Below the pieces are notes generated by a model. That model was not told the origin of the DNA. It made no database searches and saw only the letters and a list, made by a program, of their open reading frames with translations. From contig NVXH01000007.1 of NCBI GenBank assembly GCA_002746985.1, forward strand, positions 151,322-196,433: 45,112 bases of DNA. Reading direction: 5' to 3'. How positions within the stretch are numbered: the stretch's first letter is position 1; each line of letters starts with the position of its first letter. Position numbers and translations under genes: made by a program. Source of the DNA: Porticoccaceae bacterium (GTDB lineage Bacteria; Pseudomonadota; Gammaproteobacteria; Pseudomonadales; Porticoccaceae). This document shows, in pieces, positions 3,074 through 45,112 of the stretch.

Positions 3074-3859
3074 ATGTTTGCACCTGTCGGCTTCATCTTT
3101 TTTGGTCTTTTGATTTCATGTTCTGTTTTTGCAGCGGCACCTGTGTCGGAAATTGGTGGCCAAACGCCTCCGTCTGTATCTGTTGCTGCACCTCAAGTTC
3201 CACCCATCGAGCCTAAAGTGTTATCTGGTGATGTGCACTATCAAGTGCAGATACTGCAGGATGAGGTAAGAACATTGCGTGGAATGCTGGAAGAATTGAA
3301 CAATGAAGTTCGACTGCTGAAAAAGCGCCAAATGGATGATTATATGGATCTGGATCGCCGTTTAAGTACTTCTTCGGTAGGTCAGGCAGGATCTTCCTTA
3401 AAAGGTGGCGGGGCCGTGCAGGCTGCTTCTGGAAAGGCTGTTGAGTCTTCTTCCACAGGTACTACTAGCCAGGTTACCTCCTCAGCCTCTGGGGCTGAAG
3501 CTGATCATTACAATAATGCTTATGCACAGTTGAAAGCCGGTAAGGTTGCAGCTGCGGTGGCTCAATTTAAGACACATATTTCGAAATATCCCACCGGCAA
3601 GTACGTGGCAAATTCACACTATTGGTTGGGTGAAATATATGTACTTCAAAACAAACTTGAATTAGCCCGGCAGTCCTTTGCTACAGTGTTGGAATCATAC
3701 CCTGCTCACCGCAAAGCATCAGATTCGACCTATAAGTTGGGTCAGGTCTATTTTATGCAAGGCAACAAAGCCAAGGCGAAGGAGTTGCTCGAAAAAGCAG
3801 CGGCTGGAAATGATAATGCGGCAAGGTTGGCGCGTAGTTATCTGACCGAAAATTTCTAA
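3074..3859 (+). CDS. cpoB: Tol-Pal system protein CpoB/YbgF
   Basis: Signal peptide, coiled-coil 'QILQDEVRTLRGMLEEL' and C-terminal TPRs ('ANSHYWLGEIY'). Follows pal. ATG 3074 chosen over TTG 3014 because GGAG lies at 3061-3064. Confidence 0.87.
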   Translation: MFAPVGFIFFGLLISCSVFAAAPVSEIGGQTPPSVSVAAPQVPPIEPKVLSGDVHYQVQILQDEVRTLRGMLEELNNEVRLLKKRQMDDYMDLDRRLSTSSVGQAGSSLKGGGAVQAASGKAVESSSTGTTSQVTSSASGAEADHYNNAYAQLKAGKVAAAVAQFKTHISKYPTGKYVANSHYWLGEIYVLQNKLELARQSFATVLESYPAHRKASDSTYKLGQVYFMQGNKAKAKELLEKAAAGNDNAARLARSYLTENF

Positions 3860-3954
3860 TTATTAGTCATGTCCAAAGTGAGCAGAGAATATTCATTTTT
3901 CAGTTAAACCATTTGGGTTAAACTACACGGCTTATCCCGCGTAGTTTTGGTCCC

Positions 3955-4605
3955 ATGGATTTATCAACAGTTCGCATTACCGAGATTTTTTACTCCCTTC
4001 AGGGTGAGTCCACGACAGTCGGTTTACCCACCGTATTTGTTCGGCTCACTGGCTGCCCCCTGCGGTGCCAGTATTGTGATACTGAGTATGCATTCTATGG
4101 TGGTGAGCGCCAGAAAATATCTGATGTTGTTACATCAGTTGCCAGTCATAAGCCCCGTGAAGTCTGTGTCACTGGCGGTGAGCCCCTAGCTCAGAAAGCC
4201 TGTATTCCGTTATTAGCAGCACTTTGTGACGAGGGCTACCGAGTGTCTCTGGAAACCTCCGGGGCCTTAAGCGTAGAGCATGTGGACCCTAGGGTAGTAA
4301 AAGTGCTGGATTTGAAAACTCCGGGCTCTGGTGAGGTTGAAAAAAATCTCTATGGCAATATGAAGCATTTAAATATTCGTGATCAGGTGAAATTCGTAAT
4401 TTGTGATCGCCAGGATTATGAGTGGGCAAGAATGAAGATTGACGAGCTAAAATTAACGGAAAGGGTGGGGGATATTCTTTTTTCCCCAAGTACTGGTCAG
4501 TTAGATGCAGCAGAACTGGCTGATTGGATTTTAGAAGATCATTTGCCTGTCAGATTTCAGCTTCAGCTGCATAAGTTATTATGGAACGATGAGCCGGGAC
4601 ATTAA
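3955..4605 (+). CDS. queE: 7-carboxy-7-deazaguanine synthase (radical SAM)
   Basis: 'EIFYSLQGE', CxxxCxxC motif (CPLRCQYC), 'VTGGEPL', 'QLQLHK'. Adjacent to queC. Confidence 0.93.
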   Translation: MDLSTVRITEIFYSLQGESTTVGLPTVFVRLTGCPLRCQYCDTEYAFYGGERQKISDVVTSVASHKPREVCVTGGEPLAQKACIPLLAALCDEGYRVSLETSGALSVEHVDPRVVKVLDLKTPGSGEVEKNLYGNMKHLNIRDQVKFVICDRQDYEWARMKIDELKLTERVGDILFSPSTGQLDAAELADWILEDHLPVRFQLQLHKLLWNDEPGH

Positions 4606-4611
4606 GTAAAG

Positions 4612-5307
4612 ATGACTGAATCAGACAAAAAAGCAGTGGTGTTGATTTCTGGTGGTTTAGATTCCACTACTGTCTTGGCGATGGCGAGAGAGCAGGGTTT
4701 TGATTGTTACACCCTCAGTTTTGACTATGGCCAAAAAGCACATGCTGAACTGAAGGCCGCTAGGCAGTGTTCCGAATTGTTCGGAGCCTGTCAGCATAAA
4801 GTGGTAGAGCTGGATTTGCGTACCATTGGTGGTTCGGCATTAACAGATGACAGTATTGATGTTCCTGAAGAGCAAACATCCGGTATTCCCGTAACCTATG
4901 TCCCTGCACGCAATACAGTCTTCCTATCCATCGCGTTAGGTTGGGCGGAGGTGCTGGGTGCACAGGATATTTTTATTGGTGTGAACGCGGTGGATTACTC
5001 CGGCTATCCTGATTGCCGTCCAGAATACATCGAAGCTTTTGAGCGAATGGCCAATCTTGCAACCAAAGCGGGTGTAGAGGGGCAAAGCATAAAAATTAAT
5101 ACTCCTCTCATTCATATGACCAAAGCTGAAATTATTCGTGAGGGTATTTCGATTGGTGTAGATTACGCACAAACAGTCTCCTGTTATCAAGCTTCAGAGG
5201 AAGGTTTAGCCTGTGGAAAATGCGAAAGCTGTCGTTTGAGAAAGTTGGGATTTGAGCAGGCAGGCATTGTTGATACGACTCGCTATATTTCTTTAATAAA
5301 CACTTGA
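4612..5307 (+). CDS. queC: 7-cyano-7-deazaguanine synthase
   Basis: PP-loop SGGLDS, 'TYVPARN', 'YSGYPDCR' and Zn motif C..CGKCESC. Confidence 0.95.
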
Positions 5308-5686: not shown

Positions 5687-6598
5687 TTAGGGTTCCTCTC
5701 CAAGCTTTAATGGAAGTGTCTCATCAAGTACCCATTCATTCATTGAACCATCGTAAAGAGACACATTATCCTGCCCACACAAACTCATAGCCATACAGGC
5801 CATTGTTGCAGAGATTCCTCCACCACAGTATGCGATTACTTTATCCGCATCTAAAGCGCGGCTCTTAGCAAATAGTGGGCGTAGAACATTTGGCTTAAGA
5901 AATTCACCGGTATTGGGGTTGATTACTGACTCGTAGGGGACACTGTGGCTTCCTGGCAGATGACCGGGACGCCCATAACGATTTAACTCGCCCGTATACA
6001 CTTCATGGGGTAACGCGTTAAGCATTGGTGGGCCATCCGACGCCATGGCTTCTAGAATTTGGTCTTTATTAATCCACATCTCAGGTTTCGGATTAACAGA
6101 TAGCTTTCCTTTAGGGTACTTTGAAACTACATTATCTGTAGGATGGTTCTCGCGCTCCCATTTCTCCCAGCCACCATCTAATACGGCTACATTGTCAAAA
6201 CCGATAGAGCGTAGCATCCACCACACTCTGGTTGCCCACATCTGGCAACCCTTGCTAAAAAGAATGACAGACGTATTTTCAGATACACCTCTAGAGGCAA
6301 TAGCTTCAGCAAAAGATTCTGGTGGAGGCATCATAAATGGGATGCTGTTGTTTGAGTCAAACAATTCACTCTTAAGATCGATAAAATTAGAGCCTGGAAT
6401 ATGTGATTCTGCCCACTCTTTACGAGCAGTTTCTGAATCCAGATTATATCCTCCGAAACTGTCGCCTGTGTCGCCCTTATATTCGACGTAAAGAGTTACA
6501 TCATAGATTCTTAAGCTTGTTTCTCTAAGGTTACGCGCAAGCCAATCAGTTGAAACTAAATAATTAGGGAGCGTAAAACTCGTTTCATGATCTGTCAT
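5687..6598 (-). CDS. Tandem-domain rhodanese / mercaptopyruvate sulfurtransferase (SseA/MpsT-like)
   Basis: 'LVSTDWLA', 'HIPGS', 'WATRVWWMLRSIG', 'VLDGGW', active-site loop YCGGGIS, 'LYDGSMNEW'. Confidence 0.9.
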   Translation of the reverse strand: MTDHETSFTLPNYLVSTDWLARNLRETSLRIYDVTLYVEYKGDTGDSFGGYNLDSETARKEWAESHIPGSNFIDLKSELFDSNNSIPFMMPPPESFAEAIASRGVSENTSVILFSKGCQMWATRVWWMLRSIGFDNVAVLDGGWEKWERENHPTDNVVSKYPKGKLSVNPKPEMWINKDQILEAMASDGPPMLNALPHEVYTGELNRYGRPGHLPGSHSVPYESVINPNTGEFLKPNVLRPLFAKSRALDADKVIAYCGGGISATMACMAMSLCGQDNVSLYDGSMNEWVLDETLPLKLGEEP

Positions 6599-6864
6599 GG
6601 GGTTTTCTCCTATTGCTTTGATGCATCCAAATTAGAAACTGAAAGATGTTGATTTTGTTTGATTGTAGATGCAGAGTACATTAATATTCCATTATGATCT
6701 ATGCATATAATAAAATGATATTATAATGTTGTTTGTAAAAAAGAATCTCTCACTATGACTGATGAGGATTTACATTTATTTAATGCATATTTTTTTATCT
6801 ATAGATGTTTTTTAGGAAAAGCTACAAATCTAAGTTAGGAATAATTTTTACAGGAGGTATAGAT

Positions 6865-7933: not shown

Positions 7934-9691
7934 ATGAAATTAGCCCAGATTTTACCCTGCATTATTTGGGTGAGGGAATACCGAAGAAGCTACTTCGTTA
8001 GTGATATGATTGCTGCTGCCATTGTAACTATTATGTTGATTCCTCAGTCTCTTGCTTATGCCTTGCTTATAGGTCTACCAGCTCATGTGGGGTTTTATGC
8101 AAGTATTCTACCTTTAATTATTTATGCTGTTTTTGGTTCTAGTAGAACACTATCGGTTGGCCCTGTTGCAGTAGCCTCATTGATGACAGCTTCAGTGATA
8201 CAAGATATTGCCAGTCAGGGTTCTATCGATCATCTCAATGCAGCTATCATTCTTGCATTATTGTCTGGTTTACTTCTTGTATTGTTGGGTATATTTCGTT
8301 TTGGTTTTCTGGCTAATTTTTTGTCTCATCCAGTTGTCTCAGGATTCATTACTGCCTCTGGTATTATTATCGCTTTCAGCCAGTTTAAGCATATTTTGGG
8401 TATAACCGCTAATGGCAATAACCTGCCTGAAATTTTAAGTACCTTATATGAAAATGTTGCTCATACCAATCAGTCAACCCTAATGATTGGGAGCGGGGCA
8501 CTGTTTTTTTTATTCTGGGCACGTAGTGGTTTAAAAAAATTGTTACTCAAACTAAAGGTTGAAAATGCAACGGCTGAACTACTAACAAAAACGGCGCCAG
8601 TTATTGTGGTGGTAGTCACTATTTTTACTGCATTTAGTTTTGATTTGGGCAGTAAGGGTGTTGGGCTTGTAGGTAACATCCCATCAGGTTTGCCGACAAT
8701 ACAATTACCTTCAATAAACAGTGTTCCCTGGATGGATTTATTAGTTCCAGCAATATTGATATCTATTATTGGTTATGTCGAATCTATTTCTGTTGGTAAA
8801 ACTTTAGCCGTTAAAAGGGGACAAAAAATCGATCCAGATCAGGAGTTAATTGGTCTAGGTGCTGCGAATGTTGCCTCTGCTTTATCTGGAGGCTTTCCTG
8901 TTGCAGGTGGATTTTCTCGTTCCGTCGTTAATTTTGATGCTGGAGCAAAAACTCAGGCTGCAGGTTTCTTCGCTGCTATTGGAATAGGTATCGCAGCTCT
9001 AACTCTTACGGGTCTATTGGCATTTCTACCTAAAGCAACGTTAGCTGCTACCATTATTGTTGCTGTACTAAGGTTGGTTGATTTTTCTATTTTGAAGCGT
9101 ACTTGGAAGTATTCCTTGTCAGATTTCATGGCGGTGGCAGCCACTATGGTTTTAACCTTATTTCTTGGTGTTGAAATGGGGGTGCTCTGTGGCGTTACGG
9201 CTTCTATTGCACTACACCTTTATAAAACATCTCGTCCACATATTGCAGAAGTAGGTGAAATAGATGGCACAGAACATTTTCGTAATGTGAAGCGTCATTT
9301 AGTTAACACGCATACAGAGATACTCTCGTTGCGACTAGATGAAAGTTTATATTTTGCCAATGCATCTTTTCTTGAAGATCGAATCTATAAGGAGCTGGCT
9401 CTAAGGAAGGAGTTGAAACATATTATTCTGATGTGTACTGCCATTAATGAAATTGATATTAGTGCACTAGATGTATTGGGGGTAATTAATCAACGGTTGA
9501 CTGAGGTGGGTGTTGGGTTTCATCTCTCAGAAGTGAAAGGCCCTGTTATGGACTCTTTGGAAAAGACTGATTTTATAGCATGCTTGAATGGTCAAATTTT
9601 TCTTTCTCAACATATTGCTGTTACAACTATCCTGGAAAATAAGTTGAACATAGCTCAGGATAATTCTGAATTTAGAGACTATCAGATTTAA
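7934..9691 (+). CDS. SulP/SLC26 family anion transporter with STAS domain
   Basis: 'IPQSLAYALL', 'GSSRTLSVGPVA', 'GGFSRS', many TM segments and a C-terminal STAS domain ('LRLDESLYFANA'). Confidence 0.93.
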   Translation: MKLAQILPCIIWVREYRRSYFVSDMIAAAIVTIMLIPQSLAYALLIGLPAHVGFYASILPLIIYAVFGSSRTLSVGPVAVASLMTASVIQDIASQGSIDHLNAAIILALLSGLLLVLLGIFRFGFLANFLSHPVVSGFITASGIIIAFSQFKHILGITANGNNLPEILSTLYENVAHTNQSTLMIGSGALFFLFWARSGLKKLLLKLKVENATAELLTKTAPVIVVVVTIFTAFSFDLGSKGVGLVGNIPSGLPTIQLPSINSVPWMDLLVPAILISIIGYVESISVGKTLAVKRGQKIDPDQELIGLGAANVASALSGGFPVAGGFSRSVVNFDAGAKTQAAGFFAAIGIGIAALTLTGLLAFLPKATLAATIIVAVLRLVDFSILKRTWKYSLSDFMAVAATMVLTLFLGVEMGVLCGVTASIALHLYKTSRPHIAEVGEIDGTEHFRNVKRHLVNTHTEILSLRLDESLYFANASFLEDRIYKELALRKELKHIILMCTAINEIDISALDVLGVINQRLTEVGVGFHLSEVKGPVMDSLEKTDFIACLNGQIFLSQHIAVTTILENKLNIAQDNSEFRDYQI

Positions 9692-31782: not shown

Positions 31783-33246
31783 TTACAGGATATAGGTTAA
31801 GGTCAATTGAGTCAGCAGGCTGATAAGCAGAATTCCAGTAAGGTTGAGCCAAAAGCCAGCCTTGGCCATTTCTGGAATCGAAATCAGATTAGAGCTAAAT
31901 ACAATGGCATTGGGTGGCGTTGCTACCGGCAGCATAAAGGCACAGCTGGCCGCAATGGTGGCGGGAAGAATAATAGCCAGGGGATTAATTCCCAAACCTT
32001 CTGCCATCACTGCAAAAATGGGGATCAGCGCAGTGGTTGTGGCGGTATTGCTTGTGAGCTCAGTAAGAAAAATAATCAAACTAACCACCATTAGGGTCAT
32101 CACCAGTGGTGGTACCCCCTGCAAAATACTTAATTGGTTGGCTAGTAATTCACCCACGCCGTTGGCGCGAATAGCTCCAGCCAATGCCAGGCCGCCACCA
32201 AACAAAATCAAAACGCCCCAGGGCACCTTAAGGGCTGTGTCCCAATCCATCAAAAATTCCCGTTGTTTCAGATTAACCGGAATACTGAACAGCAGTAGCG
32301 CCGCAATAATGGCGATACCCGTATCACTTAGCCGGGAAAGTGGAGGCCATTCTATTAATAGCGGACGGCAAATCCAGCAGGCAGCGGTCAGCAGAAAAAT
32401 CGTCAGGGTTAATTTTGCGCCCATAGTCCAGGGTTCTGGTTTCTCATCGAGAAAAGAGCGGTCAATGGCCTCATCTCCCGGTGGATAAATCCATTGGGTT
32501 AGCATCCACCAAACCAGGGGTACAAATAACACCACAATAGGCAAGCCAATGGTCATCCACTTGGCAAAACTAATATCTATATCCAGTTCATTCTGAATAA
32601 AAGATACCGTAAACATATTGGGAACAGTGCCAATAATGGTGCCAATACCACCGATGGATGCCGCATAAGCAACCCCCAGTAGCAGGCAGAGGCTAAAGTT
32701 TTTACGATGAGGTGAATCTTTATCCAGCAGGCTGATAATACTCAGTAAAATTGGCAGCATCACCAACGTTGTTGCCGTATTGGTAATCCACATACTGAGT
32801 GTGGCGGCGACAAACATAAAACCACCCACCAGCGTGGCAGGTTTGGTGCCAATGAGCTTCAATACTCTAATGGCGAATCGACGATGTAGATGCCACCTCT
32901 CCAATGCCAGGGCGAGAATAAAACCACCAAGGAACAGAAAAATCAGAGGGTGAGCATAAGCACTGGCAGTTTCCTTAATAGTGCTGGCACCTGTTAGTGG
33001 CATTAGCGCCAGCGGTAATAATGCTGTGGCATAAATAGAAGTAGCTTCGGTCAGCCACCAGAGCGCCATCCAGGCAGCCATACCTGCGGTAGCTCGACCA
33101 GCAGTGCCAAGTACTATCTCTTCACCATTTAGTCCCGCCGCACGTTCAGGTACTAGTGAGTAAACCAATATTGCCAGTAAAGGCCCGGCTAATAGAGCTA
33201 GTTGACGAAATAGATGAATACCTTGGTGTAGTGGAGATGGCTGCAT
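31783..33246 (-). CDS. DASS/SLC13 family sodium:dicarboxylate/sulfate symporter
   Basis: 'SMWITNTAT', 'GIGTIIGTVPN', 'WGVLILFGGG', 'ELTSNTA', 'AFMLPVATPPNAI'. Confidence 0.92.
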   Translation of the reverse strand: MQPSPLHQGIHLFRQLALLAGPLLAILVYSLVPERAAGLNGEEIVLGTAGRATAGMAAWMALWWLTEATSIYATALLPLALMPLTGASTIKETASAYAHPLIFLFLGGFILALALERWHLHRRFAIRVLKLIGTKPATLVGGFMFVAATLSMWITNTATTLVMLPILLSIISLLDKDSPHRKNFSLCLLLGVAYAASIGGIGTIIGTVPNMFTVSFIQNELDIDISFAKWMTIGLPIVVLFVPLVWWMLTQWIYPPGDEAIDRSFLDEKPEPWTMGAKLTLTIFLLTAACWICRPLLIEWPPLSRLSDTGIAIIAALLLFSIPVNLKQREFLMDWDTALKVPWGVLILFGGGLALAGAIRANGVGELLANQLSILQGVPPLVMTLMVVSLIIFLTELTSNTATTTALIPIFAVMAEGLGINPLAIILPATIAASCAFMLPVATPPNAIVFSSNLISIPEMAKAGFWLNLTGILLISLLTQLTLTYIL

Positions 33247-33663
33247 AATTATTGTTATTGGGTGTTGTTATCTTGAGTTGGTACTAAGTAAAACAGAGCA
33301 TACCAACCGCAGCCCCAGATAATAAGAGCAATTAGAAATCGATGATTCAGGGCCGGATTAAAGGGAGTAGCATGTCGATAAGTGCTTATTTCTCCTAGAT
33401 CAGGAGGTTTGCAGTTAGGAAAATGCGGCCTTGTTCATGGGGAAAGTGGTATTAAGTGTTTGATTTTAAAGGGTGTTGAATTATGATCGGTGGCCATGGA
33501 GTGGAAAACAAAAGCAGGGATTAGGCTTCTTTTGCCAAACAACAGAATCCTCCTGTTTACTCCAATCCATTGTAAATAAAAAAATAATAGCCTTAACCGT
33601 AAATCATTTATCCCGAGATAATGGGGCCAAAGTGATATAAGGCCATAGGCTTTTGAATAAGCT

Positions 33664-33670
33664 GTTAGCT
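33664..33670 (+). other. Candidate integron core site (GTTAGCT), possibly an attI remnant, upstream of the DUF2130 gene
   Basis: GTT core 39 bp before the ATG. It is the exact reverse complement of AGCTAAC at the left end of attC1. No attC-like palindrome lies upstream of it. Confidence 0.3.
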
Positions 33671-35119: not shown

Positions 35120-35149
35120 ATTGTGCTTTACCACTATTGAGCACACGCG

Positions 35150-35196
35150 TTAAAGGGGTTGTAACGATTATTAAATATTCAATCTGACCCCTTTAA
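35150..35196 (+). repeat. 47-bp imperfect palindromic repeat, copy 1
   Basis: TTAAAGGGGTTGTAACGATTATTAAATATTCAATCTGACCCCTTTAA. The perfect IR extends to 13 bp (35147-35159 / 35187-35199). Confidence 0.95.
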
Positions 35197-35363
35197 CGCT
35201 TATTACAGTTACTCAAGTTGTATTTTTAGTCAACGGTGTAAACTTTGCTCGTATATGGGAGGTTACAGAATACAAAGAGTTTTTTATCCCGCTGGCATTG
35301 TTTATATACTCCATGGATCTGTTTGCATACATGAAACGAGCACGGTCGCCCGAAAAAAGCTAA
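35196..35363 (+). pseudogene. 5'-truncated cassette gene (membrane-protein C-terminus)
   Basis: Open frame TLITVTQVVFLVNGVNFARIWEVTEYKEFFIPLALFIYSMDLFAYMKRARSPEKS* begins at the repeat edge with no usable start. Its TAA is inside the AGCTAAC box of attC1. Confidence 0.6.
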
Positions 35364-35444
35364 CAAATACATGCACTCGGACAGCAAAAAGCACCGCTTG
35401 TACCTCGCTCTACTTTTTACTGCCGGTGATGCTAGACGTTATGT
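35358..35444 (+). mobile_element. attC site 1 (87 bp)
   Basis: AGCTAAC...GTTATGT. Inner stem CAT(G)CAC(T)CGG/CCGGTGATG with two extrahelical bases, then CAGCAAAAAG/CTTTTTACTG. Confidence 0.85.
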
Positions 35445-35469
35445 GGATCTAAACCGAATTTTTTCTGTA

Positions 35470-35586
35470 ATGGGAAGGTCAAAAAAAGTTGTACCTGACC
35501 CTACTTATTTCTTACTTGAGGCTACAAAATTTCAAAAGCTAGACGTTAGATTTTGTCCTTGTTGCGGGGGCAACGTTGAAATATAA
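35470..35586 (+). CDS. 38-aa ORF of a mini cassette
   Basis: MGRSKKVVPDPTYFLLEATKFQKLDVRFCPCCGGNVEI*. The stop lies in the ATATAAC box of attC2. Confidence 0.4.
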   Translation: MGRSKKVVPDPTYFLLEATKFQKLDVRFCPCCGGNVEI

Positions 35587-35652
35587 CAAGGTGTTGTTAG
35601 CCACTTCGTGGCTGGGGCAGCCTACGCGTTGCCCCAAACCACGGCGTTAAAT
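35581..35652 (+). mobile_element. attC site 2 (72 bp)
   Basis: ATATAAC...GTTAAAT, with internal hairpins AGCCAC/GTGGCT and GGGGCA/TGCCCC. Confidence 0.75.
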
Positions 35653-35665
35653 ATATAGGTACGAA

Positions 35666-36046
35666 ATGGAATATTTTCTATTAGCAATAATTGCTCTATG
35701 TCCTCTTGTTGTAGCAGGACTATTTTCGGCATTATCAAAGAGCTCTATTGACTCAAAATTTGAGTTCATTTTAATCGTATTGTCTTGTTACGGTATCTAT
35801 TACATGACATTAGTGGTTTATGGCCATTTGGAGAAAATTTTCGAAAACTATATGTATTTAAACTGTGGTTATACAGGTGAACAGCTTTCCCCCTGTAGTG
35901 AAGTTCTATATCTATTAGATAAATTTGTTGCCAATTGGCTCTTTGTCATCAGTGTGCTCTTGTCTATTAGTTTACAAATTTATCTGCTCTACAGTATTCA
36001 GAAGCGTAATATATTTAACAAGTCAAAGCAGTCAGGGACAAGCTAA
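35666..36046 (+). CDS. Cassette-encoded hypothetical membrane protein, 126 aa
   Basis: Three hydrophobic segments. Starts 13 bp after the attC2 core and runs into attC3. No family recognised. Confidence 0.7.
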   Translation: MEYFLLAIIALCPLVVAGLFSALSKSSIDSKFEFILIVLSCYGIYYMTLVVYGHLEKIFENYMYLNCGYTGEQLSPCSEVLYLLDKFVANWLFVISVLLSISLQIYLLYSIQKRNIFNKSKQSGTS

Positions 36047-36073
36047 CGCTTTCCCCTGTTTGAGGCGTTATGT
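36013..36073 (+). mobile_element. attC site 3 (61 bp)
   Basis: ATTTAAC...GTTATGT with stem TCAAA(G)CAG/CTGTTTGA. ATTTAAC is the exact complement of the preceding core GTTAAAT. Confidence 0.85.
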
Positions 36074-36148
36074 GGATCTAAATCGAGGTTTTTTTGAAGA
36101 AATGTGATGTAATTGGAATAATCTTAAAGAATTACCCAGACACAATAA

Positions 36149-36634
36149 ATGGTTTCTATGCAGTCTTTTAGTACTCAATTTATCTTATCTCGAGATTACC
36201 TTGCTGAGTGTTTTGATCAGTCTTTACCCTATAGAAAAAATGCCAAGCTCAATTATCTATTTCCTGCATTATTGTTTGCTGCTGGTGCGGGATTACTGAT
36301 TTTTACTGAGCAAGCTAAGGTCGTAGGTAGTATTTTAATCGCGTTGGCTGTGCTGGAGCTGATTCATATTCGATTTCGACGAGCTTGGTGGTTAACACGG
36401 CAGATGTGGGGGAAAAGTTCTGGCGGTGAGGTAAAATTAACCATAGATGAAAATGGGATCCAAACACAGAACGCCTATACGCAAACAACGCTATTGTGGG
36501 CAGATGTTGAGCGCGTTATAGAAACCGATTTAGGGCTTATTCTGGTGGCTAAAGCTGGAGGTCAGCAGTACCTGTCTAAATCGTTATTTTCTGTTGAGTT
36601 GATAAGCAAGATTGTTGCGAGGAATAAGGATTAA
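36149..36634 (+). CDS. YcxB-like family membrane protein (cassette gene)
   Basis: Two TM helices, then 'LTIDENGI...LLWADVERVIETDLGLIL...QYLSKSLF'. Confidence 0.72.
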   Translation: MVSMQSFSTQFILSRDYLAECFDQSLPYRKNAKLNYLFPALLFAAGAGLLIFTEQAKVVGSILIALAVLELIHIRFRRAWWLTRQMWGKSSGGEVKLTIDENGIQTQNAYTQTTLLWADVERVIETDLGLILVAKAGGQQYLSKSLFSVELISKIVARNKD

Positions 36635-36685
36635 CATTCACTTCAATAAAAATTGAAATCGCTCCTATAATGCAGCTAATACAGT

Positions 36686-36692
36686 ACATAAC
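36686..36692 (+). mobile_element. Left box only (ACATAAC) of a truncated attC site 4
   Basis: Exact complement of the GTTATGT that opens this cassette (36067-36073). Repeat copy 2 begins 4 bp later in place of the rest of the attC. Confidence 0.6.
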
Positions 36693-36696
36693 TGAA

Positions 36697-36744
36697 TTAA
36701 ATGGGGTCGTAACGATTATTAAATATTCAATCTGACCCCTTTAA
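36697..36744 (+). repeat. 47-bp repeat family, copy 2 (48 bp)
   Basis: TTAAATGGGGTCGTAACGATTATTAAATATTCAATCTGACCCCTTTAA (one inserted T). Confidence 0.95.
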
Positions 36745-36773
36745 CCGATTTACAACTCCTAGAGACCCAGTTC

Positions 36774-37232
36774 ATGAACGTCACTATAAACGGATATGTC
36801 AGCTATATCTGCAAAAGTTGTAGTAAAGCATACATGGTCGAAAGCCAATCTTTAACTTTTGTAGAAGATACCAGCCCAGAGGCTGAGGACTATAATTATA
36901 TTTGCTACGTCTCTCAAGTTAGCGAAGCCTGCACCTCTTGCGAAAATGATGTGCATATTAAAATTGAAATATGGGAATACCCCGAAGCGGCTATTAACTA
37001 CTCATATTCCGCCATAGAAGGCGCTATCGATATAGAATGCGAGTTTTGTATCGAACACTATTTCGACGAAGCAGCCGCCAAGGAAGAAGACACCGAACAT
37101 GACCCAGAACCCGCCAAAAATACTAAAACCGAGGATGAAAGTAAAAGTACCTATAACTATAACGAAGACACAGCGCGACTCCATGAACCGTCTACCGCTG
37201 AACGCTATATAGATATGTATGACGATGAATAG
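36774..37232 (+). CDS. Hypothetical acidic protein with two CxxC motifs, 152 aa
   Basis: CKSC and CTSC, 'IWEYPEA', D/E-rich tail. Fills the space between repeat copies 2 and 3. Confidence 0.7.
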   Translation: MNVTINGYVSYICKSCSKAYMVESQSLTFVEDTSPEAEDYNYICYVSQVSEACTSCENDVHIKIEIWEYPEAAINYSYSAIEGAIDIECEFCIEHYFDEAAAKEEDTEHDPEPAKNTKTEDESKSTYNYNEDTARLHEPSTAERYIDMYDDE

Positions 37233-37237
37233 AGTAA

Positions 37238-37284
37238 TTAAAGGGGTCGTAACGATTATTAAATATTCAATCTGATCCCTTTAA
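37238..37284 (+). repeat. 47-bp repeat family, copy 3
   Basis: TTAAAGGGGTCGTAACGATTATTAAATATTCAATCTGATCCCTTTAA (one substitution in the right arm). Confidence 0.95.
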
Positions 37285-37409
37285 CGAATTTCTGTATAAA
37301 AGAGCGCATTCCTGTCACTTATCCTTATGTAGGTGTGTAATCACCGGGTTTAAGCTGCTAATCAGAGTGCGCTTTGATAAGATGCGCCCATTTTAAGTCG
37401 GAAATCCCC

Positions 37410-38978
37410 ATGTTTAGTTTGATCGTTAGCAAAGAATCCAATGTAAAGAATGATTTACTCTCTGGATTGACCGTTGCTTTGGCATTAGTGCCGGAGGCGG
37501 TAGCCTTTGCTTTTGTGGCTGGGGTTGCGCCCATGGTGGGGATGTATGCAGCCTTTATGATGGGTTTGGTTGCTGCTGTATTCGGTGGTCGCCCTGGTAT
37601 GATTTCAGGTGCCACTGGTGCTATGGCCGTTGTGGTAGTTGCTTTGGTGGCTAGTCACGGAGTGCAATATCTATTTGCCGCTGTGCTATTGGCTGGCGTG
37701 TTTCAAATTCTGTTCGGTGTGTTTCATCTGGGAAAATTTATTCGTTTGGTTCCCTACCCTGTGATGTTGGGCTTTGTTAATGGTTTGGCCATCGTTATTT
37801 TTCTGGCCCAGCTTGATCAATTTAAAGTGCCTGATGCTTCGGGTGTGCTTACATGGATGATGGGTGGCGAGCTGTACTTGATGTTGGGCCTGGTAATTTT
37901 AACCATGGCGATTATCCAGTATTTGCCCCGATTAACCACGGCTGTGCCTGCGTCTCTGGTCGCTATTATTATGGTGACGTTGATGGTTCATGGCCTTGAT
38001 ATTGATACTCGAACCGTTATTGATTTTGTTCGGGGTATGTTGCCAGTAGATCAGCAGGCATCGGCAAGTCTTGAAGGTGAGCTGCCAAGCTTTGCGATAC
38101 CGATGGTGCCGTTCACGTTAGAGACATTACGTGTTATCGGGCCCTATGCCATCATTTTGGCATTGGTCGGCCTGATCGAGTCGCTTTTAACCCTGTCATT
38201 GATTGATGATCTTACTAATACCCGTGGGCGAGGAAATCGTGAATGTATTGGCCAGGGGTTGGGGAATACCATTAATGGATTCTTCGGTGGTATGGGCGGT
38301 TGTGCCATGATTGGCCAGAGTATGATCAATATTAATTCTGGTGGGCGGGGACGTTTATCGGGAATTACGGCAGCATTAGTTTTGCTGGCTTGTATTCTTT
38401 TTGTGTCTGACCTGATTGAAATGATTCCCCTGGCGGTATTAGTGGGTGTCATGTTTATGGTGGTGTTGGGCACCTTTGAGTGGGCTTCGTTTCGAATTTT
38501 TCGTGCTATGCAGCGCAGTGATGCGTTTATCTCCATATTGGTTGCTGCTGTTACCGTGTTTACTGATCTGGCTATTGCAGTAATTGTTGGTGTGATTGTT
38601 TCTGCACTGGTGTTTGCATGGCAGCATGCCAAGCATATTTCTGTTTCTACCTATACGGATGAAGATGGCTGGAAAGTTTACGAACTGGATGGCCCCATAT
38701 TTTTTGGGTCAGTTAGCAACTTTAAAGAGTTATTCTCTCCTGAGACGGACCCTGATGATGTAGTGATCGAATTTAAAAATGCACGGGTATCAGACTCCTC
38801 TGCCATTGAAGCACTACATGGGTTAGCTCATAAGTATAAAAAATGCGGCAAAAAACTACACCTTCGCCACCTAAGTCAGGATTGTTTACAGTTGTTAGAT
38901 GATGCCGCTCGTTATGTGGAAATAAACATCAATGAAGACCCACGTTATAAAGTGGCAACTGATGCATATGATGACTAA
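37410..38978 (+). CDS. SulP/SLC26 family anion transporter (second, different subfamily)
   Basis: '[19 protein letters not shown]', '[13 protein letters not shown]', '[12 protein letters not shown]', STAS domain ('GPIFFGS'). ATG 37410 preferred. Confidence 0.92.
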
Positions 38979-43552: not shown

Positions 43553-45112
43553 TTAAAGTGTCTGCTCTGACAGTTCTGTTTCAGCAGTTGTCAGCTTGGC
43601 TTGCAGTTTGTCCACGCCAGTACGGAGTGCACTAATTTTATCAGAGTTGTCTTCTGAGTTTTCAGCCTCAATGGCTGTTAACCGGTCTTGCGCTTTTTTC
43701 AGTCGTGTTTTTAAAGACGCTATAGTGGCACGTAATTTATCCTCATCGGACATATTGGCTTGGGCCGCTGCTTTAGCTTGGGCCCTGGCAATAGCAGCAG
43801 AAGCTGCATCTTGTGTTTCCGGTGTTACGGCTTCGGCTGGAGCATCGACAGGTGTTTCAGATAACTGTTGTTCCGCATCGCGTAATTTGGTCTGTTGTTT
43901 GTCTAGCCCTTTTTGTAGCGCAGCTATAAGAACAGCACCCTCGGGAGAGTCTTTTGTAGCGGCCGAAATTTTTTCTTCAGTAACAGTAATGCGCTCTTTT
44001 AAGGTGGAAATTTTCTTTTCGAGCATGTCTGTTGGGCTTGCCTGAATTTTTTCCATCAGGACTTTTGTATCTACAGCTTTTGTCTTGGGATCATCTACCT
44101 GTGTTGGTTTAATATCCTTAAGTTTGGTTTGGGCACCGACAAGTCTAACCCTGGCATCTTCAATGGCGGCCAAGGCTTGTTCTCGTTGTTTGTCCGATGC
44201 ATCTTCCTCTAGTAGCTGAAGTCGTTGCTGTACTGTTTCGAGGTGATTTTCGGCTCGTGCTACACCTCGTTCCAGTTTAGCTTGTTGCTCTTTCGGTGAG
44301 GCTTTTTTCGCCTCAGCACGAGCCATAGCAGCTTTAATAATATCGTCAACACTGGAGGCTGCGGTATCGGAAGCAGTGGTTTTCGAAGACGTTGAGTTGC
44401 TTGCAGTCTTGGCTCGAGCCTGTTCGGCAGCTTTTTTACGTGCTTCTCGTTTTGCCAGCTTGGCGGCTTCTTCTTTTTCCTTGCGGCTTTGTTGGAACTC
44501 AAAACGTTGCCGTGCCCTGTCGGAATCAATTTTTTCTTCCGCCTGTTTTCTCATTTCTCCTTTACTTGCTCGGTAGTACTGAACCAGAGGGATATTGCTG
44601 GGGCAGACATAGGAGCAGGCTCCGCATTCAATGCAGTCAAAAAGGTTTTGTGCCTCAAGCTTGTCATAATTTTTTGATTGGGCATGCCAAAATAGCTGCT
44701 GGGGTAGCAGGCTGGCCGGACATGCCTCTGCACACATGCCGCAGCGAATGCAGGCTTGAGCTAATGGCGGTTCGGGCAGCTCAGTTTTATTTGGCGCTAG
44801 AATACAGTTAGTTGTTTTAATCACCGGAATGTCCGGGTTTTCTAGCGTAAAGCCCATCATTGGGCCACCCATCACTAACCGCGAACATTCACTTTGATCA
44901 AAATGATTGTATTCAAGTAAGTGACTGATCGGCGTGCCGATTAATGTTTGGTAATTTCTATTGGTAGAGCAGGCTTTCCCTGTCACGGTGGTGACCCGTG
45001 AAATTAGTGGTTCACCGCGGGTAATAGCTTGCTGTATGGCGTAGGTGGTACCTACATTTTGGCAGACGATTCCTATGTTAGCGGGGAGTCCACCGTGGGG
45101 TACTTCTTTCCC
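43553..45112 (-). CDS. rnfC: Rnf/Rsx subunit C, 5' end outside the window
   Basis: Frame is open to base 45112 (GKEVPHGGLPANIGIVCQNVGT). Has 'MGGPMMG', two 4Fe-4S motifs (CIRCGMCAEACP, CIECGACSYVCP) and a long helical C-terminal extension. Confidence 0.95.
   Translation of the reverse strand, partial: GKEVPHGGLPANIGIVCQNVGTTYAIQQAITRGEPLISRVTTVTGKACSTNRNYQTLIGTPISHLLEYNHFDQSECSRLVMGGPMMGFTLENPDIPVIKTTNCILAPNKTELPEPPLAQACIRCGMCAEACPASLLPQQLFWHAQSKNYDKLEAQNLFDCIECGACSYVCPSNIPLVQYYRASKGEMRKQAEEKIDSDRARQRFEFQQSRKEKEEAAKLAKREARKKAAEQARAKTASNSTSSKTTASDTAASSVDDIIKAAMARAEAKKASPKEQQAKLERGVARAENHLETVQQRLQLLEEDASDKQREQALAAIEDARVRLVGAQTKLKDIKPTQVDDPKTKAVDTKVLMEKIQASPTDMLEKKISTLKERITVTEEKISAATKDSPEGAVLIAALQKGLDKQQTKLRDAEQQLSETPVDAPAEAVTPETQDAASAAIARAQAKAAAQANMSDEDKLRATIASLKTRLKKAQDRLTAIEAENSEDNSDKISALRTGVDKLQAKLTTAETELSEQTL

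Follow-up and report, generated by a model that had tools for sequence, protein, structure and literature searches.

Genes for RAYT-like proteins (repetitive extragenic palindrome (REP)-associated tyrosine transposases) may be enclosed between lengthy terminal inverted repeats (TIRs), some of them of the GGGGWSAS type; such elements have been named TIRtrons (TIRYT), and their TIRs make up families that include singlets, dimers and clusters (Di Nocera, De Gregorio & Rocco 2013, PMC3733652). TIRtron repeats are thus already known as an element type. The literature searched contained nothing on their concentration in integron attC sites or on the replacement of attC by them, nor on a fixed 47-bp heterodimer common to two genera; the closest report concerned IS200/605 beside a cluster of attC sites lacking an integrase (CALIN; PMC7923331). 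Here we describe E47, a 47-bp imperfect palindrome found in three near-identical copies in a 45,112-bp stretch of the Porticoccaceae assembly GCA_002746985.1 (positions 151,322 to 196,433 of contig NVXH01000007.1, hereafter the window), the organism being treated as a Porticoccus. The E47 copies are TIR-dimer elements of a RAYT-type transposase located at the cassette junctions of an integron array, and at two junctions they stand in the place of attC. The source genome is a 2.59-Mb draft of 15 contigs with many Ns, in which the window corresponds to C5:151322-196433; contigs (C), genomes (G) and sequence loci (L) are given here with our own numbers.

The three copies, all on the plus strand, were recovered by a pattern search of the whole window allowing up to three mismatches, which detected no fourth copy and none in 100 dinucleotide shuffles. 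The initial annotation had likewise described three near-identical copies in the same orientation and no others; its starts for copies 1 and 3 were right, while that of copy 2 is corrected from 36697 to 36698. The structure is also as described there, with arms of 11 bp each (TTAAAGGGGTC / GACCCCTTTAA) around an asymmetric 25-bp centre. Folded as single-stranded DNA, E47 forms a stem of 11-13 bp with a conserved internal loop, with a computed dG of -7 to -14 kcal/mol. Copy 2 starts with TAAAT, not TTAAA, and comparison with relatives suggests that the first bases of the repeat (AATT, possibly TTAA) would be target sequence and not part of the element. The Pfam scan found no transposase, recombinase or integrase encoded between 33.7 and 37.4 kb, as had been noted before, and the Rfam search on E47 returned nothing relevant, apart from one sub-threshold chance match to mir-2 at copy 1.

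The left unit of E47 (AAAGGGGTCGTAACGATTATT) is at the same time the terminal inverted repeat on either side of the genes of a RAYT/IS200-like Y1 (HUH) transposase clade. Two units of ~800 bp in the source genome (C10:44741-45542 and C10:88200-88972) are bounded by inverted repeats of ~30-32 bp, which form near-perfect TIRs, and encode a Y1_Tnp protein (Pfam PF01797, E=2e-12). The isolate Dasania phycosphaerae GY-19 carries an intact 230-aa homologue, with 66% identity, between exact inverted copies of the 21-nt left arm (L103 3799-4727, with the gene at 3988-4698). These inverted left-arm pairs around Y1_Tnp genes on C10 and in Dasania bear out the proposal of the initial annotation that the repeats are sites of an HUH nuclease encoded elsewhere. 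An intact paralogue is present in the source genome at C15:136114-136809 (Pfam Y1_Tnp, E=1.6e-15), flanked by TIRs of its own that measure 26 bp and follow the same AAAGGGG...TTATTTTT frame. Its sole match in the PDB is E. coli TnpA_REP (4ER8, E=8.6e-5), with which the HUH motif and the catalytic tyrosine align (HIH and RYVELNP with HMH and DYIYINP, respectively). The right arm of E47, read on the other strand, is GGGGTCAG and resembles GGGGGTCAGAG..., the TIR of a second RAYT type in relatives. Since the left arm is a transposase TIR and the right arm is like that of the second RAYT, the description that suits E47 best is a heterodimer of two TIR units arranged head to head; because its left arm flanks Y1 (HUH) transposase genes, it can be regarded as the REP/REPIN-like "TIR dimer" of a TIRtron (REPIN, REP doublet forming a hairpin).

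Among the described systems, the TIRtrons share with E47 a RAYT-like Y1 gene between long inverted repeats unrelated to the GTAG REPs, gene-free TIRs in moderate copy number (~20 singlets and 8 head-to-head dimers, the E47 copies), and a GGGG-type core. The right arm fits GGGGWSAS, whereas the left arm (GGGGTCGT) departs from this motif at positions 7-8. Unlike the TIRtrons described, E47 is a heterodimer of fixed sequence and 47 bp, and it concentrates at attC positions in integron arrays, a distribution that is not in PMC3733652. With the REP/REPIN-RAYT systems (E. coli TnpA_REP, Pseudomonas REPINs) it has in common the HUH motif and catalytic tyrosine, TnpA_REP being the best structural homologue, imperfect hairpin repeats, inverted repeats around the gene, and the doublet as the multiplying unit. 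It differs from them in that neither E47 end carries a 5' GTAG in the consensus of 30 copies, in that there are 8 copies and ~20 singlets rather than hundreds, and in that the transposase is multi-copy and decayed in the source genome rather than one gene passed on vertically. The Y1 HUH enzyme, the strict orientation and a presumably single-stranded substrate are shared with IS200/IS605 elements and palindrome-associated transposable elements (PATEs), and the four junctions with a reference would fit insertion 3' of a fixed short target (AATT or TTAA) with no target-site duplication, although no clean empty site was found. The ends of IS200/IS605 are differing subterminal hairpins, whereas the transposase units found here have true 30-bp TIRs.

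Short repeats that bracket gene-sized modules are also known from pdif modules and from integrons flanked by miniature inverted-repeat transposable elements (MITEs) or integron mobilization units (IMUs). A XerCD/dif-like (pdif) site was rejected for E47, because 25 bp separate the 11-bp arms instead of the 11-6-11 arrangement (28 bp). A MITE of the DDE type was not supported either, since no target-site duplication was seen at 30 copies and the cognate gene encodes an HUH enzyme; in addition, the E47 copies are direct, unlike the inverted copies of MITE-bracketed composite units. A Tn3-family inverted repeat, as the GGGG start could indicate, was rejected because the enclosed gene encodes a Y1 transposase.

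Two E47-bearing junctions have a clean reference in other genomes, namely J3 on C15 and the junction after the YcxB-like cassette in the window, and at both of them E47 takes the place of all sequence 3' of the R'' box of attC. The redoxin and CvfB-like units of C15 were found in many congeners at 80-93% identity, in other contexts and flanked by canonical attC sites, with match limits at most 6 nt from the E47 edges. The CvfB-like and redoxin cassettes are neighbours in G026 and G017 as well, separated by an attC, whose exact place E47 holds in the source genome. The replaced segment of ~85 bp comprises the attC and ~27 nt of the leader of the next cassette; homology ends at ...CCAATT(AA) in the R'' box and restarts at TAT(G/T)TTAAG. 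The neighbours were therefore already adjacent before E47 at J3, indicating that the repeats did not assemble these modules.

The YcxB-like cassette circulates widely: 290 homologues with 70-89% identity come from many different genera. In the homologues L139 and L143 its 3' tail remains conserved as far as the R'' box GCACATAAC; past this box L143 continues as a full attC, and the source genome as tgaatt|AAATGGGGTCG.... The unit of ORF152 (ORF, open reading frame), which lies between copies 2 and 3, has a counterpart in L137 (79% identity) that is homologous from 3 nt past copy 2 to ...AGTAATTAA at copy 3 and does not contain E47, while the homologues L136 and L138 had no informative flanks. 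All four junctions with a reference break after AATT.

What appeared as a repeat-module-repeat pattern is thus an integron array with several attC sites overwritten. The initial annotation was right in placing the repeats at module boundaries, as the unit limits coincide with the E47 edges, and in taking copy 3 as the return to housekeeping-like sequence, as the core SulP gene follows. Its further proposal, a second cassette system in which the repeats capture unrelated DNA fragments and stack them, is not supported: the modules are ordinary integron cassettes, those at J3 are joined through an attC in G026 and G017, and the attC is also replaced after the YcxB-like cassette. At the strain level, seven contigs recovered from other metagenomes match the window at 99.7-100% identity and carry the same three E47 copies with the same variant bases, so that the locus is invariant and no empty site came to light. 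E47 marks cassette borders but probably did not capture the genes.

Like attC, E47 lies at the 3' end of cassettes and in array orientation (window copies 1-3, the C15 copies and C11:53754). This could mean that E47 is a short, unusually conserved attC class used by the integrase IntI, in which case the bracketed units would still be ordinary mobile cassettes. Its position and orientation behind cassettes, three of them in the window and three on C15, together with a hairpin-forming imperfect palindrome that has conserved unpaired positions, would agree with this. However, the outer stem 5'-(G)TTAAAGG...CCTTTAA(C)-3' runs opposite to the attC arrangement 5'-RYYYAAC...GTTRRRY-3', no complementary GTTAC pairs with the internal GTAAC, and the genuine attC sites of the genus are different (TAACAAG...GGCGTTA). 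Copies with the same core are also found between housekeeping genes in another genus, and the left arm serves a transposase gene as TIR. E47 was rejected as an attC variant on the geometry of the R boxes and for the lack of GTT at its 3' end, and we regard an attC class of this kind as hardly credible.

The source genome contains eight full E47 copies: three on C5, three on C15 (245.3-246.7 kb, minus strand, spaced 640-700 bp), one at C11:53754 and a degenerate one at C11:243874. Seven of the eight are at cassette junctions in three integron arrays. Their orientation is that of the cassettes, with one direction within each locus. Rfam detected no non-coding RNA near the copy at C11:53754. The left half (TTAAAGGGGTCGTAACGATTATT) is present in ~20 further copies in the genome, which continue as ...TTTTTTGATCA.

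The 47-bp form was absent from 34 congeneric species and from 26 more distant genomes. The 21-nt left arm was detected in 18 of 35 genus genomes, the source genome included, with 1-9 copies in each congener, and also in Dasania. A metagenome scan recovered 21 contigs with ~24 further distinct copies that share the 27-nt core (at least 24 for these 21 contigs). Their housekeeping proteins are 66-73% identical to those of the source genome (73% amino-acid identity for LeuC), indicating that the contigs come from another genus. There the copies are mostly in ordinary intergenic DNA, between housekeeping-type genes. The initial annotation had named hundreds of copies spread over ordinary intergenic regions without a link to variable genes as evidence against its proposal; the scattered copies of the other genus partly correspond to this.

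Alignment of 30 distinct copies showed conservation from (A)ATTAAAGGGG to CCCCTTT, with an invariant TTAA at the left and no duplicated target at the right, so that the TTAA duplication considered in the initial annotation is not observed. Of 32 copies, 10 have a TAAC of the R'' type no more than 35 nt upstream (background 11%, p=0.002), and two more copies sit straight after a complete attC. Short stutter duplications are frequent at both E47 termini.

Left-arm singlets were found shortly downstream of housekeeping genes (purD, uvrB and ilvD, for example), and directly 3' of hisA at an orthologous site in at least five Porticoccus species, in which the 21-mer is unchanged while the coding DNA is only ~75-80% identical. 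These singlets raise the question of a host function, by which E47 would be a hairpin that has been domesticated as a transcription terminator, a stabiliser of mRNA or a site for protein binding and is kept by selection and not by transposition. The hairpin is stable, and REPs are known to act in this way (PMC3733652). Nevertheless, no T-run follows the hairpin, E47 itself was absent from the 34 congeners searched, the same core in two genera indicates mobility, and a host function would not account for attC being lost where E47 lies. We give this reading a very low probability: a pure host function is unlikely for E47 itself, although some old singlets, for instance the ones after hisA, may have one.

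Other Porticoccus species carry a 79-bp version, here named E79, in which the left arm and the pattern of paired and unpaired positions are as in E47. In G025, E79 follows three successive cassettes and is nested inside attC-like outer stems. G021 and G029 have the same right flank as G025, but their left flank is unrelated DNA carrying GGGGTCAGATAAGAC; L126b and L131b likewise have a common right flank and not a common left flank, and in L126b the R' box of an attC directly abuts the element. One of the cassettes with E79 in its attC encodes an OXA-type class D beta-lactamase of 260 aa with an STFK motif, found in environmental metagenome-assembled genomes of Porticoccus.

The flanks of E79 bear on a different explanation, in which directly repeated E47 or E79 elements are cleavage and joining sites of the RAYT, and the DNA to the right of one copy or between copies is moved by a one-ended or peel-and-paste process. 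Cassettes mobile through IntI would in this way become modules mobile through the RAYT, or arrays would be reshuffled by the elements as portable homology. All multi-copy loci hold copies in direct orientation (the window, C15, G025, G021, L115, L116, L119, L126 and L131), the module limits coincide with the element edges, and the right flank is kept beside an unrelated left flank in three comparisons (G025 with G021, G025 with G029, and L126b with L131b), which makes the left edge a breakpoint. Terminal stutter duplications suggest repeated cleavage and ligation, and the same possibility has been raised for an IS200/605 element beside a CALIN (PMC7923331). On the other hand, the J3 neighbours were already adjacent in relatives with attC between them, no structural polymorphism was found among the seven strain-level contigs, the matching transposase copies are decayed, and most copies in the other genus are solitary and in ordinary intergenic DNA. 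Furthermore, the ORF152 unit of L137 has the same limits without any E47, and IntI-mediated cassette turnover upstream explains the changes of the left flank equally well, as the attC R' box abutting the element in L126b illustrates. We hold such an HUH-driven module system to be unlikely. Capture and stacking is not needed for the data, and the left-edge breakpoints and the strict direct orientation keep only a minority version of it alive, at low probability. In its more specific form, E47 and E79 would serve as working ends for a second mobilisation layer on integron arrays, based on HUH activity, in which the RAYT cuts directly repeated copies at their left edge (AATT|AAAGGGG) and moves or reshuffles downstream cassette-sized DNA, which we consider doubtful; if it existed, cassettes without attC would stay mobile and could cross genera without IntI.

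The explanation that we favour, and consider reasonably probable, is that E47 is a non-autonomous miniature element of the RAYT type with a preference for integron attC, overwriting the attC between cassettes. E47 would be the REP/REPIN equivalent of a RAYT-type transposase, moved in trans as single-stranded DNA and inserted 3' of AATT (or TTAA) without target duplication. The attC hairpins would be favoured landing sites, presumably because the IntI and RAYT systems both act on extruded single-stranded hairpins. The 3' half of attC may have been lost secondarily, by adjacent deletion or by recombination between copies, and cassettes with E47 in place of attC would no longer be excisable by IntI. 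E47 is likely inert at present in the source genome, because both matching transposase copies are decayed.

Several observations weigh against this explanation. The attC 3' half is missing beside E47, whereas a simple insertion would leave it, and a second step, adjacent deletion or recombination, must therefore be assumed. The two C10 transposase copies whose TIRs match have defects around the HUH motif, and the transposase TIR matches the left arm only, the origin of the right arm being deduced from a resemblance over 9 of 10 nt. No transposition event, empty site or excision product was seen for any copy in the source genome, and the seven strain-level contigs are structurally identical. 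The copy number of E47 is low (8), unlike that of classical REPs, and the orthologous left-arm singlets 3' of hisA point to conservation or host function for at least some copies. Finally, in relation to GC skew, seven of the eight E47 copies are on the G-rich strand, yet this amounts to just three of four loci, and the singlets are mixed.

Group IIC-attC introns, with their intron-encoded protein, and insertion sequences of the DEDD (IS1111-attC elements) or HUH type located at attC are autonomous and leave attC recognisable on both sides. E47 resembles these attC-targeting elements, and the IS200/605 element by a CALIN (PMC7923331), in being a mobile element preferentially located in or at attC, and in that elements dependent on single-stranded DNA cluster at cassette arrays; it differs in being a 47-bp non-coding sequence and in that the 3' part of attC is gone in the source genome. 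Integron cassettes move only via attC hairpins, and E47 might freeze cassettes, providing one route from mobile cassette to resident gene. It might also scatter portable homology through arrays and connect two mobility systems based on single-stranded DNA, those of IntI and RAYT. The presence of E79 in the attC of the OXA-type beta-lactamase cassette of relatives implies that this interaction bears on the keeping or loss of environmental resistance cassettes. For the TIRYT branch of RAYTs, which is poorly studied, E47 and the intact Dasania transposase would be a concrete, testable pair of substrate and enzyme.

The array that carries the three copies lies between the core genes for a DASS and a SulP transporter (Table 1), which are syntenic in the relatives G017 and G034, where the DNA between them is different and shorter. 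The interval in the window can be read as an attI-like leader, the DUF2130 cassette, E47, three small attC cassettes, the YcxB cassette, E47, ORF152, E47 and SulP. An intact intI gene was found at C15:188439-189386, a second one with one stop codon on C8 and a fragment on C11; two intI genes exceed the TIGR02249 cut-off. The attC type of the genus, YTAACAAG...GRCGTTA, is found after the intact intI, and the three sites between E47 copies 1 and 2 are of this type. The attC map is heuristic: a strict scan gave 32 sites, compared with 7-15 in shuffles, and serves as a map only, while a loose TAAC...GTTA scan, with 149 matches against 149 in shuffles, was not used.

Table 1. Features of the integron array in the window and related sites elsewhere. 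Positions refer to the window unless a contig or locus is named.
Feature	Position	Strand	Remarks
DASS transporter	31783..33246	-	core gene, left limit of array
R235, attI-like array leader	33432..33668	+	conservation stops at crossover G(33664)|TTAG
First cassette ORF, DUF2130, 469 aa	33710..35119	+	Pfam
E47 copy 1	35150..35196	+	1 mismatch; after DUF2130 cassette ORF, without attC in between
Canonical attC AGCTAACAAA...GACGTTATGT	35358..35444	+	similar attC copies in congeners
Canonical attC ATATAACAAG...GGCGTTAAAT	35581..35652	+	attC scan
Canonical attC ATTTAACAAG...GGCGTTATGT	36013..36073	+	after 126-aa ORF 35666-36046
YcxB-like cassette ORF, 161 aa	36149..36634	+	Pfam
ACATAAC, surviving R'' box of YcxB-cassette attC	36686..36692	+	comparison with L139, L143
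E47 copy 2	36698..36744	+	2 mismatches; takes the place of the YcxB-like cassette attC from 5 nt past the R'' box
ORF152, 152 aa, CxxC-rich, acidic	36774..37232	+	no Pfam family; sole gene between copies 2 and 3
E47 copy 3	37238..37284	+	1 mismatch; final array junction, then core SulP gene
SulP transporter	37410..38978	+	core gene, right limit of array
R235, other copies	C5:145270, C5:147180, C5:203482, C6:5981, C7:141141, C8:8196, C8:87946, C11:206446, C15:42179		fragment at C11:102956
AAAAGTTGTA repeat, further sites	C9:34397-34457, C9:34554, C12:18777, C7:139457, L011 ~9360-9400		
hisA-linked left-arm singlets	L093 (G016) 3290-3340; L060, L061, L072, L074, L092		
Cassettes followed by E79	G025		231-aa ORF; OXA-type class D beta-lactamase; YefM/YoeB-type pair
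OXA-type cassette	L087 (G025:C3:11000-19000) 3669-4451	minus	same cassette in G021 (L070); next cassette YefM/YoeB-type pair

The attI-like leader belongs to R235, a 235-bp repeat with 10 copies in the genome, all of which diverge right at ...AAGCTG|TTA, the attI crossover point, the conserved end reading ...AATAAGCTG|TTA. Each of the 10 copies leads, in its own orientation, into attC sites or known cassette-array DNA, and only one of them adjoins an intI (on C8, 136 bp away). R235 is also present in several copies per genome across the genus. Dispersed attI-like leaders that head integrase-free mini-arrays look unusual.

Two further arrays (C15:191.7 kb, equivalent to L046 ~5690-5790, and C6:4010) end in a truncated last attC followed by (A)ATA(G/C)GGGTCAGATACAA, a singlet resembling the right arm of E47, suggesting that array ends may also carry this repeat family as a marker. 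A short repeat, ...AAAAGTTGTA(C/A)CTGACC(C/T)TACT..., was found at 35459-35517 of the window and at other sites in or near cassette arrays.

The intact second RAYT lies in L012 (C15:130000-140000) at 6114-6809, with TIRs GAAAAGGGGACGCATCTATTTTTCAC, and adjoins a gene for a 795-aa lipase/RTX-like protein. A repeat of ~200 bp with a pseudo-ORF 'MQRKAVM...' is present near it in three copies (L012 3303-3500, 4164-4379 and 5832-6047). The C10:44-95 kb region, which holds the two decayed RAYT units, contains eight more TIR singlets, several minus-oriented attC sites and accessory genes, among them a reverse-transcriptase-like ORF at ~78.9-80.3 kb, and is probably a large variable region or island. 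In Dasania, the left end of the intact TIRtron is tandemly duplicated (L103 3799-4040) as a unit of ~120 bp that includes the TIR, leader and first 14 codons, a terminal stutter of the kind found at the E47 ends.

A 23-nt inverted pair with 91% complementarity, TAAAAGAGCGCATTCCTGTCACT, is located at 37297-37319, just upstream of sulP, and at 43979-44001 of the window, 6.7 kb apart, and may be a shared operator or another small repeat. The motif TAAAAGAG was also found 3' of the ORF152 unit in L137.

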